Source: Ostreococcus lucimarinus (lineage: Eukaryota). Taken from it: a stretch of 64,000 bases of DNA. Positions 13,267-64,000 of this stretch are shown piece after piece. The notes beneath the pieces were generated by a model. It did no database searches. It worked only from the letters and a program-made list of their open reading frames with translations, and was not told the DNA's origin. Location: the NCBI GenBank assembly GCA_000092065.1, contig CP000586.1; one strand, written 5' to 3'. Made by a program: the position numbers and the translations under genes. The number at the start of each line of letters is the position of its first letter. The first letter of the stretch is position 1.

Positions 13267-15261
13267 TCAAGCGCGCTGGCCGCGATCGAGGGCGTTTTGC
13301 CTCGATGCGAGCGTGGCGGAGAGCTGCGAAAGCCGAGCGTGCGTGCTGCCGTCAATGACCAGCGGCGGAGTGATGTGCAAGCCTGGGCCTTCGCCTATGA
13401 GGAACTGTAGAAGCGTTTGCGCGCGACCGTAAGTGTCCGACGCAGTCTGCTTGTTCTCCGCCAATTCCTCCCGAACGCCTTCTTTTGCGAGCTTGCAGAT
13501 TTGTTGGTACACCAACTCCATGCCGTCGGGAAGCGCCGAATTCATATCGAAGCCAGCGGCGTTGCAAGCCGCCGCTGCCTTTTCGGCGCGCGTATGGGCG
13601 GCTTGAAACGCTTCTCCGATTCTCACTGTCGCGCGCTTAGCACTGACGGCCATCGAGCTTCCTGCTGTGGGGGAACTATCTGCGGACGAAGTGCTCGCGC
13701 TCGTCCCACTGAGCGCGATGGATGATGACTTTTGCTCGGTCGTGAGGATTTCAGACGCGAATCTGTGCGCCGTGCGCAGCGCTGCGAGAGAAATCAAGCC
13801 CAAGGATAGCGCCTCGAGCTTGCTTCCCGCGTTCCAATGTTCCATCGAACTGTCGCGCAGCACCGCGGCGGCTTTCTCTAAAACGCCCACGCGCACTCCG
13901 AGTTGCGCGACGAGTATTTGAGACTGCGTTTGCGCGCGCGCGGCGAGCGTCATCGGTTGACTCGAAGGCGATGTCCCTCGCGACATGCGCGCGCGACCTC
14001 CGAACGTGGCACCCGCCCCATCCCTTGGACTGAGTGACATGCGCGACAACGGCGACGAACCGAGTGACGGCGAGCGCATCGCCGTAGACTTTGGCCCACT
14101 CGCTCCTGGCGACGATACCAAGACGTAGTCGCCACCGATATTCATCTTATCCCCATTTTCTTGCACTTTTGTAGACGTCGGCACCGGACGACTGATCGGT
14201 CGTTGCGCTTGTTCCGCGAGACGTATCGACGTCGGCGACGGGCTCGCGCTCTCGACATCCATATCAAACGGCATCGTTTCGCTATCGTCGCTACAGCCGC
14301 TCCGAGAAATCCTTCCCTGCGAATTCTGAGCGCCTGGTTTCGTCGGAATGCCGACTCCAACGTCGGCCGCTTTCAAGAACGGATGATTGAAAAACTCTTC
14401 AAAAGAGATGCGATTCGCGGCGTCGCGGTGAAGCAAGCCGCGAAGTAAGTCGATGCACTCAGCCGACAACCCTTGGGCGATGTGGATGGGAATCTTGAAC
14501 TCGGTCTTTTGAATGTTGCGCAGGAGCTGCACTTGATTTTGCCCCGTGAACGGCACGGTACCGACGAGCATCTCAAACAATATCGCCCCCACGCTCCACA
14601 AATCCGCCTTGGCGTCGTATCGCTGATAATTCAAAACTTCGGGCGCCATGTACAGCGGACTCCCGCACACGGTGTCCGCCATCCCTTCGCTGTCGCGAAT
14701 GTATCTCGCGAACCCAAAATCAGCGATTTTCAACTCGGCGTTCAAATCGTTCGAAGTCAACAGCAAATTTTGCGGTTTCAAATCTCGATGCACGATCTGC
14801 GCCTTGCGCATCGCCTTGAGCCCCCTCGCGAGCTGAAGCATGAAACGTCTCGCCGCGATTTCTTCCATCCTTCCGTGCCTCTTGATGAACTGACTCAGAT
14901 CCCCCCCCCCACAATATTCCAACACGATGTACACCGTCTCGTTCGAGCTCTGCATATCGATAAACCGGAGAATATTTTCGTCTCGCATCCTTCGCATCAC
15001 CTCCACCTCGAGTTTCAAACTCTCCCTCAACTTTTTACTCAACCGCTCGCACGCGATCTCCTTCACCGCCACCACCGCCCCCGTCTTCACGCACGTCGCT
15101 CGCCACACCGTCGCGAACGACCCTCGACCGAGCGTCGCGTCGTCCAGCGCCCACCTCTCGCCCACCGTTCGCCGTCGTCCGCTCGCCCCGCGCGCGCGCG
15201 TCGTCCACCCCTCTCGCGACGCGTCCGCCACCCCGCGCGTCCCATCCGTCGTCCGCGTCAT
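13267..15261 (-). CDS. ATG1: Ser/Thr kinase ATG1/ULK (autophagy initiation kinase)
   Basis: Kinase domain LGRGSFATVWRA...VAVKEI...IVHRDLKPQNLLL...LKIADFGFAR...CGSPLYMAPEV with a ULK-type C-terminal region. Start chosen at Met MTRTTDG (codon 15259-15261); the longer ORF to 15714 runs into the promoter tandem repeat. Confidence 0.75.
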   Translation of the reverse strand: MTRTTDGTRGVADASREGWTTRARGASGRRRTVGERWALDDATLGRGSFATVWRATCVKTGAVVAVKEIACERLSKKLRESLKLEVEVMRRMRDENILRFIDMQSSNETVYIVLEYCGGGDLSQFIKRHGRMEEIAARRFMLQLARGLKAMRKAQIVHRDLKPQNLLLTSNDLNAELKIADFGFARYIRDSEGMADTVCGSPLYMAPEVLNYQRYDAKADLWSVGAILFEMLVGTVPFTGQNQVQLLRNIQKTEFKIPIHIAQGLSAECIDLLRGLLHRDAANRISFEEFFNHPFLKAADVGVGIPTKPGAQNSQGRISRSGCSDDSETMPFDMDVESASPSPTSIRLAEQAQRPISRPVPTSTKVQENGDKMNIGGDYVLVSSPGASGPKSTAMRSPSLGSSPLSRMSLSPRDGAGATFGGRARMSRGTSPSSQPMTLAARAQTQSQILVAQLGVRVGVLEKAAAVLRDSSMEHWNAGSKLEALSLGLISLAALRTAHRFASEILTTEQKSSSIALSGTSASTSSADSSPTAGSSMAVSAKRATVRIGEAFQAAHTRAEKAAAACNAAGFDMNSALPDGMELVYQQICKLAKEGVREELAENKQTASDTYGRAQTLLQFLIGEGPGLHITPPLVIDGSTHARLSQLSATLASRQNALDRGQRA

Positions 15262-31350: not shown

Positions 31351-31930
31351 ATCGTCCTCACGTGTATAACAATTGTAAAGCTAAGCATCCTCACGCGCGC
31401 TTCAGTCGCCCAGCGCGTCCAATTTCGCTTGAATATCCGCCCTTCGTCGCCTCGCCTGCCTCCCCCATCCCGACGCCATCGATAATTCATACCTCAGCGT
31501 CTCTCGATCCCTCTCCCGCTCTCTCTGAGCCTTCCCATCCCGCACCATTCCGAGCGCGCTCGCCAACCCGCTCGCGACGCCCGCCACCGCCCCCGCGCCG
31601 AGCGCGAACACCAGCCCCCCGCCCGCCGCCGCCGCCACCAGCCCGCTCACCGCTCGAAACACCGACAATTCTTCCATCTGTTCCGCCTCGCGCGCCATCT
31701 CCTCCGCCGTCGCGCGCGTCTTTCGCGTCTTGTCCCCGTCGAACGCGCTCAATTGCATCGACCGCGCGGGCGCGCCGCGCGTCGTTCGCGCGCGCTCGCG
31801 CGCCGCGCGCGCCGCGCGTCGGAGCATCGTCGCCGCGCCGTCGCCGCGCCGCGCCGTCGTCGCGTCGCGCGCGCCGGTCTGACGCCGCGCCGTCGCATCG
31901 ATTCGACGCGTCAATTCGCGTCGCGCCCCG

Positions 31931-58614: not shown

Positions 58615-58847
58615 CGCGTCGAGCGCTCGGCGTCGCGCTCGGCGTCGTCCGTCGCGTCGCGCTCGCGACGCGACGCGCGACGTCGACGCGACGCGCGGCG
58701 TCGCGGATTCGCGGCGACGCGCGACGCGACGCGCGTCGTAAAAAAACGCCGGTCGCAAAAAAACGCGCGTTTAAGCGTGTAGATTACCTTTCAACGCAGA
58801 GACGATCGCATTCGCGATGGCGCACTGTTTATGCACACGGCGCGCGA

Positions 58848-60587
58848 ATGACTCGAGCCGGCGGCGCGCCGGCGACGGATGACGGCGGATGGCGACGGCG
58901 CGCGCTTTATCCGACGCGCGACGGGACGGCGACGACGCGAACGACGCGCGCGAACGACGACGCGATGGCGGACGAAGACATGGAGGCGCTCGAGCGCATG
59001 ATGGCGGCCATGGAGGCGAAGGAACGCGAGGCGGTGGACGACCACGTGACGAGTCGGTTTCCGAAGATGCGCATCGCGTGGGAGGCGAACGCGATCGAGG
59101 GCGGCGCGGACGCCGTCGTCGTCGCGGGATGCGCGCCGATCGACGTCGGCGGTGGACGCATGAAAGAGTTCGCCGGACACGCGTTTCACGAGCTGGCGCG
59201 GATGAAGAGTGGGTTGAGCGCGGTGTGCGAAGTCAAGCTGGCGAAGAAGGCGTCGATGGCGGCGCTGGACGAGGAGGCGATGGATGACTTTGTGGATTTT
59301 GATTCTCCGGAGTTTAAGATGAAAAAGACGAAGCGACGAGGGAATAAGGAGTTTGGTGATCACTACGGCGCGTTGGGGTTGGCGACGAAGCGATACTTGG
59401 CGACGAAGGAGGAAATTCTTGAAAAGCATCGCTGGTTGACGATCGCGTTGCATCCGGATAAGCGCGGGGTGGCGCAAGTCGACGCCGTCGAAGCCGAGCG
59501 CATTGAACAGCGCTATAAGGCTGTCGTGACGGCGATGGAAGTCTTGACGGATAAGGCGAGAAGACGGGAGTTTGATTCCGTCGATGCGCCGGATTACAAG
59601 TTCCCATCCTCGTGCGAAGAGGGTGAGTTTTTCGAGACCTTTATGCCGCACTTTCACTTGTTGTCTCGCTTTAGCGAAACCAAGCCGGTGCCGATCTGTG
59701 ACGACCCGGATGCGCCGTATGAAGACGTGCGTAAACATTACATTTTCTGGGCGGCGAAGTTCAATTCGTGGAGAGAATTCCCGCACGAAAAAGAAAACGA
59801 CACGGAGACGGCGCACGACCGCGACCATCGTCGTCAAATGGAAAAGGAAAACAGATCCCTTCGCGCCGAATCGAAGAAGAAGGAACAAGCTCAGATTCGT
59901 GCTTTCGTCGAGGCCGCGCAAAAGTACGATCCTCGATGCATCAAGCAACGCGCCATTGAAAAGGCTGCGCGCGATGCGAAGAAGATGAGCCGCAACAATA
60001 GCGCCCGCCAGCTCGCCGAAGAGGACGAGAAGGCCAAGGCTGAGGCTGAGGCCGCCGCGAAGGCTGCAGCCGAAGCCAGCAAGGCCGACAAGGCGAACGC
60101 GAAGAAGGAGCTCGAAAAACTGAAAAAGGCGCTCCGTAAAGAAAAACAGCGACTTCGAGCGATCGGCGCTGTCGCGGAAGGCTGGGTAGATTACCCTGGC
60201 GACGGCGAGCTCGAGAGCCTGTGCGACGCATTGACTATCGATCACGCCAAGGAATTGAAGACGCTGTTGGACGCCGCGATGAACGGCGACGACGTCAAGG
60301 GTCCATGGGACGCCACCGCGTGCGTCCTCGCGTGCTTGGTCTTGGCCAAGGGTGGCGACTGGCAAGCAAAGGCGGATGAAGCCGCCAGCCGCCGCGCTGA
60401 GAGAGAGGCTTCCGACAAGGTTGGCGGAGCGTGGGGCGCCGACGAAATCACCGAGCTCGAAACGGCTACGAAGCAACTGTTCCCGTTGGGTACCATCAAC
60501 CGTTGGGACTCCATCGCGGCTCACATGGCGAGCGCGGGCAAGCCCCGCACCGCGATGTGCTGCATGACGAAGTCTCGCTCGATGTAA
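58848..60587 (+). CDS. DNAJC2: zuotin / DnaJ subfamily C member 2 (J domain + SANT)
   Basis: J domain (HYGALGLATKRYLATKEEILEKHRWLTIALHPDK), zuotin homology domain (FFETFMPHFHLLSRFSETKP), charged coiled region, and a C-terminal SANT (WGADEITELETATKQLFPLGTINRWDSIAAHM). Met 58965 is an alternative start. Confidence 0.85.
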   Translation: MTRAGGAPATDDGGWRRRALYPTRDGTATTRTTRANDDAMADEDMEALERMMAAMEAKEREAVDDHVTSRFPKMRIAWEANAIEGGADAVVVAGCAPIDVGGGRMKEFAGHAFHELARMKSGLSAVCEVKLAKKASMAALDEEAMDDFVDFDSPEFKMKKTKRRGNKEFGDHYGALGLATKRYLATKEEILEKHRWLTIALHPDKRGVAQVDAVEAERIEQRYKAVVTAMEVLTDKARRREFDSVDAPDYKFPSSCEEGEFFETFMPHFHLLSRFSETKPVPICDDPDAPYEDVRKHYIFWAAKFNSWREFPHEKENDTETAHDRDHRRQMEKENRSLRAESKKKEQAQIRAFVEAAQKYDPRCIKQRAIEKAARDAKKMSRNNSARQLAEEDEKAKAEAEAAAKAAAEASKADKANAKKELEKLKKALRKEKQRLRAIGAVAEGWVDYPGDGELESLCDALTIDHAKELKTLLDAAMNGDDVKGPWDATACVLACLVLAKGGDWQAKADEAASRRAEREASDKVGGAWGADEITELETATKQLFPLGTINRWDSIAAHMASAGKPRTAMCCMTKSRSM

Positions 60588-60718
60588 GCAGGCCGCGCTC
60601 GCTCGCGCACACAATTCTTTCCCAGACATTTCTGGCACCTAAACACACACAACGCAAATAACACTAGCTACTTACTTACATGCAATCCACTGTTGATATT
60701 TCGCTATCGTATTACACT

Positions 60719-63700
60719 CTATGCGTCGCTCACCTTGACCGGCAAAAGTCGCCCGACGACGAGCGAGCCGTCGCCGCATCGTTCAGACACAAACATGGAA
60801 TTTTCTGCGTCGCTCCCTTCGGGGGTTTCAAACTTCAAGAGATGATGCGTGCCCGCGAAGTCGGCCCAAAGCGCATTTGGTATCACGTTTCCATCGCTTG
60901 CCGTCACTAACGCCCATTTACCCTCGCCCCAAGGAGTCGCCAATTTCCCAGCCTCGAGGAACTTCATCCCCGGCGTGCCGGCCCAGGACCACTCGCGCTC
61001 TCGCTCGTTCGAAATTTTGGACGCGAGCTCGTGTGATTCAATCGCACTTTTCGTCGGCGCTGACGTCGGTACAGCACAGAGCGCGATCGACTCTTCGCCC
61101 GAGGTTTCAACTCCGGTACCCGCCGCCCACTTCATGAAAGGAACTCGTGACTTCTGTACCTCGCTCGACTCGCCGCTCTTCAGCGCTTCGTAATACGCGT
61201 ACGTATCTCGCATTCGTTCCACATCGCGAACGTGGTAGCTGAAATCAACCGTGATTGGCACATGTTTTGCCATAGCTTGGTCTTTGCGCATGAACAAGAA
61301 GACTGTCTTTGAATTGGCAAAACACAGATAATTGAGCGTTCGCCGGAGGATGCCGACGGCGACGACGTCGCCGTACGATGGGAAGAAGACCGCCGCGTTG
61401 AACACATCTTGCTCTTGCGCCACCGAAACGTCGCCCTTCATGGCGGTCAAACGAGTGGCCATTCGTTCTGCGAAAGCGATAGATTCTTGGGTCGGGGATA
61501 GTCTGAAAAATCCAGCATCTGAGCTCACCACTCGACCGCCGTGCAAGAATCGACTCCAATCCATGGTAGGATCGTCGACGACGTGGTCGTATCCGTACGC
61601 AGAAGCATCGTCCCAACCATCGCTCGCGGACTCCAAATCAGAATCTCTGTAAAAGAATTTCGAAGGGTCATCAAGCAAGACGACTCGCGGATCGACGAAG
61701 ACGACTCCGTGACCGTCTCGAAGAACGGCGTGAATGGCGTACCATTTGAGAGCAGCTTTCGAGAGCGGAGTCTTTTGCGACTTGCGGATCACAGTGGCGA
61801 GTCCGGCATCCCTCGCCGCTTTCGCGATGCTCTCATCATCTGTGACGACCATAGCTCGCTTTATCAATCTATTCTTCTCGATGCCGTGCTCTAGGAACAA
61901 TCCAAACACTTCGGAGTCTTTGGCGTCCGCGACGACGATCATGGCATCGCCGTGCTCATCGAAAGTCAACTTGCTAGAAAGCACATCGCAGATTTCCTTC
62001 ACAGTTTTCCTCAACTTTGAATCACTCCGGCACACACGCTCACTATCGCTGATGACGTGCAATTTTCGATCGAGTTTGTCCACTTTTCCATCCCACGCCG
62101 TCATAGGTTCGCACGTCTTTGCGCCCGCGCGCCCTTTCGTCCACGTCTTGCTTCCGATGAATCCATCATTAATGCTATGCAAGTGACCAGACTCCAGTTG
62201 AATAATAGACTTCAAGCCCTTATCGCAGCCAGTGATGCAGTCGAGCGACGACAACGGTGCGTCCTTGGTGTAATACGCGTGAACGAGCTTGATTTTGTTG
62301 TCCTTGTCCGTGTGATAGTTCGCGTGCATCGCCACCGGGCGATGATTCTCTCGCTGTAAAGGCTTCGAGTGACGAATGATTCGAAACATGACCTTGCTGT
62401 TCATGAAGCAAAACGGATCCATGACTCGCACTGTCGCCCCTGACGTCATGTGCGCGTCGCGACTCGCGAACCAGAGCTCAAGATTGTACCCGCTCTGGTC
62501 CCACAACTCTTCCGTTGCCAAGCGATGCGCCATGATTTTCATCAACCGCAAACTTGCTTCAGTGGCGCTCACGTACCACATGCCGCTATTGAGCGCGGCA
62601 ACGCGAAATGATCCAGCGCGCCGCCGAGCCTCACCGAACGAAACATCGTCGATAGGCTGTAAGAATCCATTGGCTGAATCATTATCGAAGCCATCACTCA
62701 TGCTTTCGATGTCGCTGTCGCGGTACAAGTAATCGAATGGGTTCTGCTGATACGTGACGTCTGTGTCGGTAAGCAGCACAGAACATCCTACGGCGACGAA
62801 CTCTTGAATCAAAGCAAACTTCTTCGCGCTCACTTTGTGATTACCCATCACGGGATCTTCGTGAAAGTAATAGGGCACGCCCAGCTCATCCAAACGCTTT
62901 GTCAGCGGCTCGTCGAGCGCGATGACGAGAAAGTTTGGAACTTTCAACGCGATGAGCATTTCCAAGAATGGCGTCAAACCAGGCGCTTGCGAGTTCGCCA
63001 CCGCGGCTAGTACTTCTCTGTTTTTCGCCACTCGTCGCAAAACTTCGCAAAGCGCCTCGCGTCCGTCGCAGTTCTGAGGCCACTCTTCAGAGTCGCGCGG
63101 AACGATGAAATCTAACGAGCGCGCGGAACCCCATATCCGTCTATTAATTCGCTTCGGTTCACACCTGTTCGGTCTTGAGTCATCCACGACGAACGCATCC
63201 GTTCTGCGCCCATTGATCGCTCGAAGCGCGAACGGTTCCATGAACGATGGCGCCGCCGCGACGTAGGAATCTTCGCTCGATGCGGCGGACGCGTTTGACG
63301 TTCGCTCTTCATTTCGTCGCTCGACGTGCGACGTGACCGTATCTGAAATGACCCGTGATGATGGCGATGGCGGTGGTGGCGACGGTAAAGGCGACGGCGG
63401 TGGCGGCGGTGGCGAGTTTTCCACCGGCGGTGGCGGCGGTGGCGGCGGTGGCGAGGTTTCCACCGGCGGGTCATCGTCCACGTGGACTTCGCGAAGTCGC
63501 GGCGATTCCTCCACCGCCGCGTTCGCCTCCTCCGCCGCTCGATCGCGTCTCTCGATAATCTCCTTCACCTCCGCGTCCACTCGAACATCCAACTCGCGTT
63601 TCACCATTTCGTCCCTCGTTCGTGCGTCGCTCGCCGCGCCCGCCATCGGTTCCCCCCTCAAAAGCGCCCCCCTCGTCGGATTCAATCGATACAAATCCAC

Positions 63701-63787
63701 CCGCAACAGCGCGACGAGCGCGCCCAACGCGATCCCTTGCGTCAACACCCGAACCGCGCGACCCCGTCGCGTCGTCCAAAACGCCAT
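60719..63787 (-). CDS. tandem two-domain GT77 nucleotide-diphospho-sugar transferase with TM anchor and extensin-like SPPPP stem
   Basis: TM FWTTRRGRAVRVLTQGIALGALVALL; stem SPPPPPPPPPVENSPPPPPPSPLPSPPPPSPSS; two Nucleotid_trans (GT77) domains (...VIALDEPLTKRLDELGVPYYF...LLTDTDVTYQQNPF... and ...MVVTDDESIAKAARDAGL...VFVDPRVVLLDDP...). Confidence 0.7.
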   Translation of the reverse strand: MAFWTTRRGRAVRVLTQGIALGALVALLRVDLYRLNPTRGALLRGEPMAGAASDARTRDEMVKRELDVRVDAEVKEIIERRDRAAEEANAAVEESPRLREVHVDDDPPVETSPPPPPPPPPVENSPPPPPPSPLPSPPPPSPSSRVISDTVTSHVERRNEERTSNASAASSEDSYVAAAPSFMEPFALRAINGRRTDAFVVDDSRPNRCEPKRINRRIWGSARSLDFIVPRDSEEWPQNCDGREALCEVLRRVAKNREVLAAVANSQAPGLTPFLEMLIALKVPNFLVIALDEPLTKRLDELGVPYYFHEDPVMGNHKVSAKKFALIQEFVAVGCSVLLTDTDVTYQQNPFDYLYRDSDIESMSDGFDNDSANGFLQPIDDVSFGEARRRAGSFRVAALNSGMWYVSATEASLRLMKIMAHRLATEELWDQSGYNLELWFASRDAHMTSGATVRVMDPFCFMNSKVMFRIIRHSKPLQRENHRPVAMHANYHTDKDNKIKLVHAYYTKDAPLSSLDCITGCDKGLKSIIQLESGHLHSINDGFIGSKTWTKGRAGAKTCEPMTAWDGKVDKLDRKLHVISDSERVCRSDSKLRKTVKEICDVLSSKLTFDEHGDAMIVVADAKDSEVFGLFLEHGIEKNRLIKRAMVVTDDESIAKAARDAGLATVIRKSQKTPLSKAALKWYAIHAVLRDGHGVVFVDPRVVLLDDPSKFFYRDSDLESASDGWDDASAYGYDHVVDDPTMDWSRFLHGGRVVSSDAGFFRLSPTQESIAFAERMATRLTAMKGDVSVAQEQDVFNAAVFFPSYGDVVAVGILRRTLNYLCFANSKTVFLFMRKDQAMAKHVPITVDFSYHVRDVERMRDTYAYYEALKSGESSEVQKSRVPFMKWAAGTGVETSGEESIALCAVPTSAPTKSAIESHELASKISNEREREWSWAGTPGMKFLEAGKLATPWGEGKWALVTASDGNVIPNALWADFAGTHHLLKFETPEGSDAENSMFVSERCGDGSLVVGRLLPVKVSDA

Positions 63788-64000
63788 CTTCGAATCCCTC
63801 GCGCTCACTTTTTCGATCCCAGCTCTCGCGCGATCCTCGTCCCGAGTTCAAACGCCAAGTCCACCGCCGCGTCGCTCGCGCGCAGCGTCCCCGCGCACAG
63901 CGTTCGCGCCGTCTCGTCCCGTATCCTCTCCGTCCTCACCTCGATCACCCCGTGCTTCGCACCGATCGACACGCACACCGCCGTCGCACCCAGCGTGTAC

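Follow-up and report, generated by a model that had tools for sequence, protein, structure and literature searches.

The stretch analysed here is a 64,000-nucleotide window of contig CP000586.1 from the green alga Ostreococcus lucimarinus (NCBI GenBank assembly GCA_000092065.1), and its subject is a minus-strand gene near one end that encodes a protein of glycosyltransferase (GT) family 77, related to the RRA enzymes of land plants. The open reading frame (ORF) spans 60719..63808, giving 1029 residues from a GTG start at 63808 and 1022 residues from the first ATG, at 63787; the ATG-started frame coincides exactly with the coordinates 60719-63787 assigned in an initial annotation of the same DNA. 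The 1022-residue protein aligns end to end with orthologues of approximately 960-1100 residues, and the identical product is encoded on at least 24 marine metagenome contigs. It is predicted to comprise, in this order, a cytosolic tail, a signal anchor, a luminal helix, a disordered stem, a first GT domain (domain 1), a helical linker, a second GT domain (domain 2), a helical connector and a β-barrel (Table 1). The full-length AlphaFold model is compact and multi-domain, with a mean predicted local distance difference test (pLDDT) score of 80.6 and a predicted template modelling score of 0.78. The two GT domains share a fold and appear to have had different fates, the first keeping and the second losing the residues expected of an active enzyme.

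Table 1 Features of the tandem GT77 gene and its product, in window coordinates.
Feature	Residues	Position	Strand	Basis
Tandem GT77 protein of RRA type, whole intron-free coding sequence	1022 residues plus stop	60719..63787	-	ORF list
Predicted type II signal anchor, after an Arg-rich cytosolic tail (residues 1-13)	14-32	63692..63748	-	Hydrophobicity; AlphaFold helix
Long luminal helix between anchor and stem	53-93	63509..63631	-	AlphaFold secondary structure
Disordered, fast-evolving stem	94-189	63221..63508	-	pLDDT 29-49; low orthologue identity
Species-specific Pro-rich core, PPVETSPPPPPPPPPVENSPPPPPPSPLPSPPPPSPS	107-143	63359..63469	-	Includes 39-bp tandem duplication at 63395-63469
Domain 1, GT-A fold, probable GT77 clade A (RRA-type), presumed catalytic	240-520	62228..63070	-	Pfam; RRA matches; pLDDT >90
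DxD motif of domain 1, D341-T-D343		62759..62767	-	Translation; alignment of 40 sequences
Helical linker between the GT domains	521-604	61976..62227	-	AlphaFold helices at residues 528-605; C521 and C559 conserved
Domain 2, GT-A fold, RRA-derived, degenerate signature, probable pseudo-glycosyltransferase	605-875	61163..61975	-	Pfam; hidden Markov model; signature count
Degenerate DxD position of domain 2, D699-P-R701		61685..61693	-	Translation
Most conserved loop of domain 2, SDGWDDxSAYGYDHVVDDPxMDWSRFxHGGR	722-752	61532..61624	-	Translation; invariant alignment columns
Helical connector	876-927	61007..61162	-	AlphaFold
C-terminal eight-stranded up-and-down β-barrel, conserved, no Pfam family	928-1016	60740..61006	-	

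The presence of two GT77-type domains, as proposed in the initial annotation, is borne out by two matches to the Pfam family PF03407 (Nucleotid_trans), both above its gathering score of 22 bits. The match to domain 1 covers residues 282-501 (E-value 1e-47, 163 bits) and profile positions 2-207 of 208, and the match to domain 2 covers approximately residues 678-855 (E-value 5e-16, 59.7 bits) and profile positions 52-201 only. A search with residues 226-560 alone, which contain domain 1, returned dozens of named land-plant proteins, nearly all of them RRA1/2/3-like; those named RRA1, RRA2 or RRA3 showed 37-42% identity at 78% query coverage (E-values of 1e-43 to 1e-53). The DxD motif of domain 1 is invariant in a family alignment of 40 sequences, 29 of Mamiellales type and 11 more distant, where it occurs in the context LLTDTDV (FLTDTDV in two sequences and LLSDTDV in one). 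Also invariant in all 40 are the motifs ALNSG and WDQ and residues H488, N490, Y491 and H492 of the motif H.NYH.DK, with conservative changes in the flanks. When domain 1 and the plant RRAs are taken together, 52 positions are near-invariant, and domain 1 holds every one of them. These features suggest that domain 1 is an intact catalytic domain of RRA type (GT77 clade A), an activity assigned by comparison with the Arabidopsis enzymes. Single-domain RRA paralogues in the same algae were also considered, and the candidates, strong matches of 430-530 residues, were rejected as fragments or intron read-through products of two-domain orthologues.

Domain 2 has a complete GT-A fold in the AlphaFold model, with strands and helices across residues 614-870 and a pLDDT mostly above 85. 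It aligns with domain 1 at 28% identity over 255 residues (E-value 4e-25), and plant RRAs score 214-223 bits with its hidden Markov model (HMM), compared with 270-276 bits with the domain 1 HMM. The two complete Nucleotid_trans domains described in the initial annotation are thus confirmed as folds; as regards the catalytic signature the description fails, because domain 2 reads DPR at the DxD position. The third residue of this triplet is never Asp in the 29 Mamiellales-type sequences, where it is R, S, G, A, E, Q, N, K or T, and the first two residues are D-P in 27 of them (A-P in P0007 and D-F in P0032). The 11 distant two-domain sequences have DPD (eight), DAD (one), DPP (one) or SDD (one) at this site, and the third residue is Asp in nine of the ten distant sequences within the signature-position scoring.

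The decay of domain 2 extends well beyond the DxD position. Only 23 of the 52 near-invariant positions are retained in the Mamiellales, the losses (in domain 1 numbering) including G315, H317, S320, D343, N400, S401 and W429, together with D430 (now Glu), Q431, H488, N490, D494 and K495. The distant group retains D343 and has lost H317, N400, D430, Q431, H488, N490 and often H492, such that the NSG, DQ and H-x-N motifs are missing from domain 2 throughout. The DxD, NSG and DQ..N motifs of domain 1 presumably correspond to motifs of family GT8, and it is by analogy with GT8 that the NSG, DQ and H-x-N motifs are expected to contact the donor. On this analogy, the residues expected to hold metal and donor would thus have gone from domain 2 in every lineage, and the DxD would have decayed last, in the Mamiellales. 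To judge from its sequence, domain 2 is in all likelihood an accessory domain without catalytic activity and not a second enzyme. It would be an old, divergent copy of an RRA-type domain, deprived of the residues that bind metal and donor. It nevertheless appears to remain under purifying selection, with 66% identity among close orthologues and an invariant loop (residues 722-752) that varies less than any other part of the C-terminal half. Residues 731-750 of this loop are modelled with the lowest confidence in domain 2 (pLDDT 62-67), and this combination points to a loop that is both conserved and flexible and that may take part in binding or in an interface.

The C-terminal barrel, which is not mentioned in the initial annotation, was modelled with high confidence when residues 890-1022 were taken alone (pLDDT 90.9), as three helices that form the connector followed by the eight strands. 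Its conserved pattern is WSW.G....F...G.L.TPWG.G.W....F.G..H.L.F.....F.S.RC.DG..V.GR. The barrel HMM also matches proteins with a single RRA-like domain (P0143 and P0293) and proteins in which a weak N-terminal GT77-like domain precedes a strong RRA-like domain (P0247, P0251, P0267 and P0286). Because it matches these other arrangements of GT77-like domains and does not match plant RRAs, the barrel appears to be a recurrent partner of GT77-A domains in algae. In one further protein, P0245, barrel-like matches lie close to the N-terminus. Structurally, the barrel resembles the barrel domain of GH43 arabinanases (AbnA, PDB entries 5ho0 and 5ho9; Abn2, 2x8t; and 4kca) and the ligand-binding barrels of the avidin and calycin type; identities are 3-14%, with no detectable sequence homology, and designed barrels score equally well, so that the likeness is at the level of the fold only. 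Pfam searches of the stem and of the C-terminal region returned noise only (Mito_fiss_reg at E-values of 0.02-0.4 and SH3_VIII-1_N at 0.15).

At the other end of the protein, residues 14-32 form the sole N-terminal hydrophobic segment (Kyte-Doolittle mean of 1.70 over 19 residues), immediately preceded by the positively charged RRGRAVR and lying within an AlphaFold helix at residues 9-35. The anchor position is kept in orthologues, and 11 luminal Cys residues are conserved. The segment fits a type II signal anchor, in agreement with the membrane topology given in the initial annotation. The luminal helix that follows is little conserved, with 15% identity to the closest orthologues.

The fold was compared with known structures in the Protein Data Bank (PDB). 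The matches include the retaining GT-A enzymes glycogenin, LgtC, GTA/GTB and Gat1, as well as LARGE1, PmHS2, K4CP and the metal-independent enzyme 4ayj; a sequence profile search of the PDB found no solved GT77 relative, and a fold search against viral proteins gave generic GT-A matches only. Glycogenin and LgtC (GT8) and GTA/GTB (GT6) share the retaining GT-A fold (template modelling score of approximately 0.55, normalised to the target), but they are single-domain proteins of other CAZy families with 10-15% identity. The human protein LH3 consists of a catalytic GT-A domain, a GT-like accessory domain without a catalytic site and a C-terminal β-rich domain. LH3 (PLOD3; PDB entries 6te3 and 6fxm) was the best PDB fold match (E-value 2e-8), at 10-11% identity and with no sequence relationship. 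Its C-terminal domain is an Fe/2-oxoglutarate dioxygenase, in contrast to the small barrel here, and the GT families differ; by analogy, LH3 may serve as a precedent for the pairing of a catalytic GT-A domain with a non-catalytic GT-like one.

The closest relatives of assigned function are apparently Arabidopsis RRA1-3, which have a type II anchor, as predicted here, a stem and one PF03407 domain, to which domain 1 is approximately 40% identical over approximately 260 residues (E-value of approximately 1e-50). Plant RRAs, however, are single-domain proteins of approximately 420-440 residues that lack both a second GT-like domain and a barrel. The algal protein exceeds them by approximately 500 residues, made up of the linker, the degenerate domain 2 and the barrel.

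Hydroxyproline (Hyp) O-arabinosylation is, to our knowledge, a hallmark of the green lineage, and only in land plants and Chlamydomonas are its enzymes known. Arabidopsis RRAs extend Hyp bearing one arabinofuranose (Araf) residue, Hyp-Araf1, to Hyp-Araf2 (PMC5371791, PMC8012813). Two kinds of GT77 enzyme thus lengthen the chain, RRA by the second arabinose residue and XEG113 by the third; Hyp itself is arabinosylated by the HPATs of family GT95 (PMC5371791). The initial annotation presented GT77 enzymes as the Hyp-O-arabinosyltransferases of Ser-Pro motifs such as those of the stem; this stands in so far as domain 1 apparently belongs to the RRA clade, which acts on Hyp-arabinosides, and falls for the bare Ser-Pro motif, which is a task for GT95. 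In Ostreococcus tauri, Hyp-Araf3 has been reported, cited as an unpublished observation (PMC8012813), and genes of families GT77, GT95 and GT96 are present in its genome (PMC13213038, Table 3).

Taken together, we consider it probable, with some reserve, that the protein combines an active RRA-type domain 1 with a pseudo-glycosyltransferase domain 2 and a barrel, and that the stem is irrelevant to the conserved mechanism. It would be the Mamiellales version of a prasinophyte-wide type II membrane glycosyltransferase of the Golgi, in which domain 1 would lengthen Hyp-linked arabinose chains on proteins of the secretory pathway; the donor, the acceptor and the localisation are carried over from Arabidopsis RRA1-3 by homology. 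The donor would be a uridine diphosphate (UDP)-sugar used with a divalent metal, probably UDP-β-L-arabinofuranose (UDP-Araf). Domain 2 and the barrel, which is of a ligand-binding type, may have an accessory role in acceptor binding, oligomerisation or scaffolding.

Several points weigh against this interpretation. No member of this family is known to have been assayed, localised or solved structurally. Domain 2 retains an acidic cluster, R-D-x-D-x-E...D-G, common to domain 1 and the plant RRAs, together with N797, R816, K827 and H852. Loss of the DxD is no proof of inactivity; metal-independent GT-A enzymes exist, for example the bacterial GT6 enzyme 4ayj found among the fold matches. Clade assignment is based on RRA scores, for domain 2 in a sequence comparison without labelled XEG113, RGXT or clade D members. 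Finally, no GT75 UDP-arabinose mutase was found in prasinophytes by Ulvskov et al., who themselves doubted the function of RRA and XEG113 in this group (PMC3797821), and UDP-Araf is a doubtful donor for that reason.

The retained residues bear most directly on the alternative of a bifunctional enzyme, in which both GT77 domains would be active and add two successive sugars, for instance the second and third arabinose of the Hyp-linked chain, domain 2 working without a canonical DxD-metal site. The model gives each domain a full GT-A fold with high confidence, domain 2 is under apparent purifying selection with its invariant acidic loop, and the residues it keeps include D699, D715, D717, E719 and D723 in addition to the four named above. 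More distant members still have DPD in domain 2, and the fold matches include the two-domain glycosyltransferases LARGE1, PmHS2 and K4CP besides the metal-independent enzyme. Both domains of a bifunctional GT would be expected to keep the catalytic signature of the family, but that of domain 2 is degenerate: the third DxD residue is unconstrained in the Mamiellales-type sequences, and the NSG, DQ and H-x-N motifs that are invariant in domain 1 and the plant RRAs are lost everywhere, even from the lineages that keep DPD, where the His equivalent to H492 is often lost as well. The processive two-step arabinosylation suggested in the initial annotation is unlikely, because domain 2 has lost the DxD and most of the signature positions, and we regard a bifunctional enzyme in general as unlikely too.

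A fusion of an RRA with XEG113 was considered as a particular form of this arrangement and provisionally rejected. XEG113 (GT77 clade C) belongs to the same Pfam family and acts in the same pathway (PMC5371791), but the scores of domain 2 point to an RRA origin, and no affinity to XEG113 was found for it, in a comparison that contained no labelled XEG113 sequence. Searches with domain 2 and the barrel returned algal sequences only, and no protein named XEG113 appeared in any search.

GT77 also includes xylosyltransferases (RGXT) and galactosyltransferases (AgtA), which counts in favour of a different sugar: domain 1 might transfer, for example, xylose or galactose instead of arabinose onto glycoproteins or onto scale- or wall-like polymers. 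The identity of domain 1 to plant RRAs is only approximately 40%, and both the reported absence from prasinophytes of the GT75 mutase, which makes UDP-Araf, and the doubts of its authors about RRA and XEG113 function point the same way (PMC3797821). The named plant matches, however, are RRA-type and have every signature residue in common with domain 1, and the report of Hyp-Araf3 in O. tauri (PMC8012813), albeit an unpublished observation, also speaks for arabinose; a different sugar is in our view distinctly improbable.

The stem carries the Ser-Pro motifs to which the initial annotation drew attention, SPPPPPPPPP, SPPPPPP and SPPPPSP, and all are present, starting at residues 112, 125 and 136. 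Pro makes up 28% and Ser 17% of residues 94-189, whereas the remainder of the protein contains 3.7% Pro, and no long reading frame of the window has a Pro run longer than P9. In the DNA, the Pro-rich core consists of a 39-bp unit present in 1.9 copies at 97% match, with nested 9-bp repeats of CGGCGGTGG (Tandem Repeats Finder). The stretch varies within the 90% identity cluster: one population variant (P0053) lacks exactly VENSPPPPPP, a 10-residue deletion, and others have N/T and S/P substitutions. It is absent from all 48 homologues of the first search, including the closest orthologues at 59-70% identity, an outcome that the initial annotation itself had listed as refuting its reading. The longest Pro run is at most 2 in 31 of 32 stems compared; no SP3 or longer motif was found in 31 other full-length stems, Mamiellales-type and distant, apart from an unrelated SPPPP in the distant P0034, the only Pro run of 3 or more among the homologue stems.

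Sequence identity to the closest orthologues falls to 13% in the stem, with 30% gaps, compared with 83% in domain 1, 66% in domain 2 and 64% in the barrel. The stems of the nine closest orthologues are acidic (14-27% Asp plus Glu, with 4-9% Pro), those of Bathycoccus contain 20-27% Ser, and a Micromonas-like lineage has a KPKPKPKPK stretch. Low-complexity composition was seen to differ by lineage among the stems compared (P0011, P0012, P0112, P0133 and P0002-P0010). The extensin-like stretch appears to be a young, slippage-prone expansion confined to this species, in a linker whose sequence changes freely in all lineages, and the Ser-Pro stem is not part of the conserved mechanism. Further runs of five or six Pro were observed in long, putatively coding frames of the window, at 15066-15083 (+) and 31581-31640 (+), for example SPSPPPPPPSS in a 752-residue frame; in a genome this rich in GC, a short poly-Pro run is thus no rarity.

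Because the Pro-rich stretch is absent from the orthologues and variable, the self-glycosylation of a substrate-like motif in cis put forward in the initial annotation is refuted as a conserved mechanism, and a built-in Ser-Pro4-9 acceptor glycosylated by its own enzyme is very improbable: SP9, SP6 and SP4 would face the lumen beside an RRA-type domain, the Hyp-arabinosylation machinery seems to be present in Ostreococcus (PMC8012813, PMC13213038) and the fold resembles that of self-glucosylating glycogenin, but this last likeness is generic to retaining GT-A folds, RRA-type enzymes act on Hyp-arabinose and not on bare Pro or Hyp (PMC5371791), and the motif is a recent duplication of variable length in a stem with 13% identity between close orthologues. 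The luminal stem might still be hydroxylated and arabinosylated incidentally in this species, since it would face the Golgi lumen and O. tauri has both the reported Hyp-Araf3 and the GT95, GT77 and GT96 genes. The locus offers a cautionary case, in which a striking extensin-like motif beside an enzyme that seems to match it is a recent expansion of microsatellite type.

Returning to the reading of an active domain 1 with accessory C-terminal modules, the RRA-type enzyme of the smallest marine green algae would be a conserved three-module protein, and its additional function, whether accessory or in recognising the acceptor, would be one that is missing from plant RRAs. A more specific proposal, which we offer tentatively and hold to be doubtful, is a prasinophyte RRA module in which the active GT77-A domain is permanently coupled to its pseudo-glycosyltransferase twin and to the small ligand-binding barrel, these two reading the acceptor, a Hyp-arabinoside or a Pro-rich peptide, and thereby setting the chain length or processivity of arabinosylation. 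If so, where land plants have RRA and XEG113 as separate enzymes, the module would be an alternative to them or the ancestral solution, and the stepwise decay of domain 2, with the DxD lost only in the Mamiellales, would document a path from enzyme to pseudoenzyme. Being compact and intron-free, the gene is a candidate with which the structure and biochemistry of an RRA-type enzyme could first be studied.

All five parts of the architecture, anchor, stem, active domain, degenerate domain and barrel, occur together in Ostreococcus-like, Bathycoccus, Micromonas-like and more distant prasinophyte-type sequences. The closest non-self orthologues are 59-70% identical, and the Bathycoccus prasinos orthologue (CAL6395685.1) falls in a cluster at 45-50% identity. 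Partial matches, which attest the family but not the whole architecture, carry the labels Mantoniella (a truncated label), Cymbomonas tetramitiformis and Prasinococcus capsulatus. The domain 2 profile matched 1027 representatives at an E-value of at most 0.001 among 1.84 billion proteins. The searched papers that class algal GT77 genes into clades A and C (RRA and XEG113) do not mention a tandem or modular architecture, and a literature search for GT77 with 'pseudoenzyme' found nothing, so the tandem arrangement of an active and a degenerate domain with a barrel appears not to have been described before. The enzyme family is already known, and public genomes and transcriptomes contain the gene family without annotation; in this respect the finding is incremental. 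It does not overturn current understanding, and it adds a clear example of the decay of an enzyme to a pseudoenzyme.

In IMG/JGI the 1022-residue protein bears the names 'outer membrane biosynthesis protein TonB' or 'rRNA-processing protein FCF1'. Both are probably spurious and driven by the Pro-rich stretch, because Pfam finds PF03407 alone.

The window has the look of a compact picoalgal chromosome, with a GC content of approximately 60% and tightly packed, mostly intron-free housekeeping genes, among them those for an ABCG transporter, a Castor/Pollux channel, RF1, RIO2, an ATG1-type kinase, an M50 protease, GidA, Vps54, a PP2C-FHA protein and HflX. The neighbours of the glycosyltransferase gene are unrelated housekeeping genes, and a cluster of glycosylation genes at this locus was ruled out for that reason. 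The metagenome contigs show the same gene neighbours, with ZUO1/DnaJ downstream and an aldehyde dehydrogenase further upstream.

Two smaller observations concern the immediate flanks. On the same strand, a 74-residue ORF (MMRGALSSTLYTLGATAVCVSIGAKHGVIEVR...ELGSKK) at 63806-64000 extends past the end of the window (L001, 2759-2983). Its stop lies 18 nucleotides ahead of the glycosyltransferase ATG, which leaves scarcely any space for a promoter or 5' untranslated region; four metagenome contigs have the ORF as a called gene, and Pfam gives no match for it. On the downstream side, the ZUO1/DnaJ gene (58848-60587, +; PF00226 and PF21884) is wholly overlapped by a 615-residue antisense ORF at 58791-60638 (-). 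We read the latter as a GC-rich shadow ORF and not a gene, similar long overlapping ORFs being numerous across the window.

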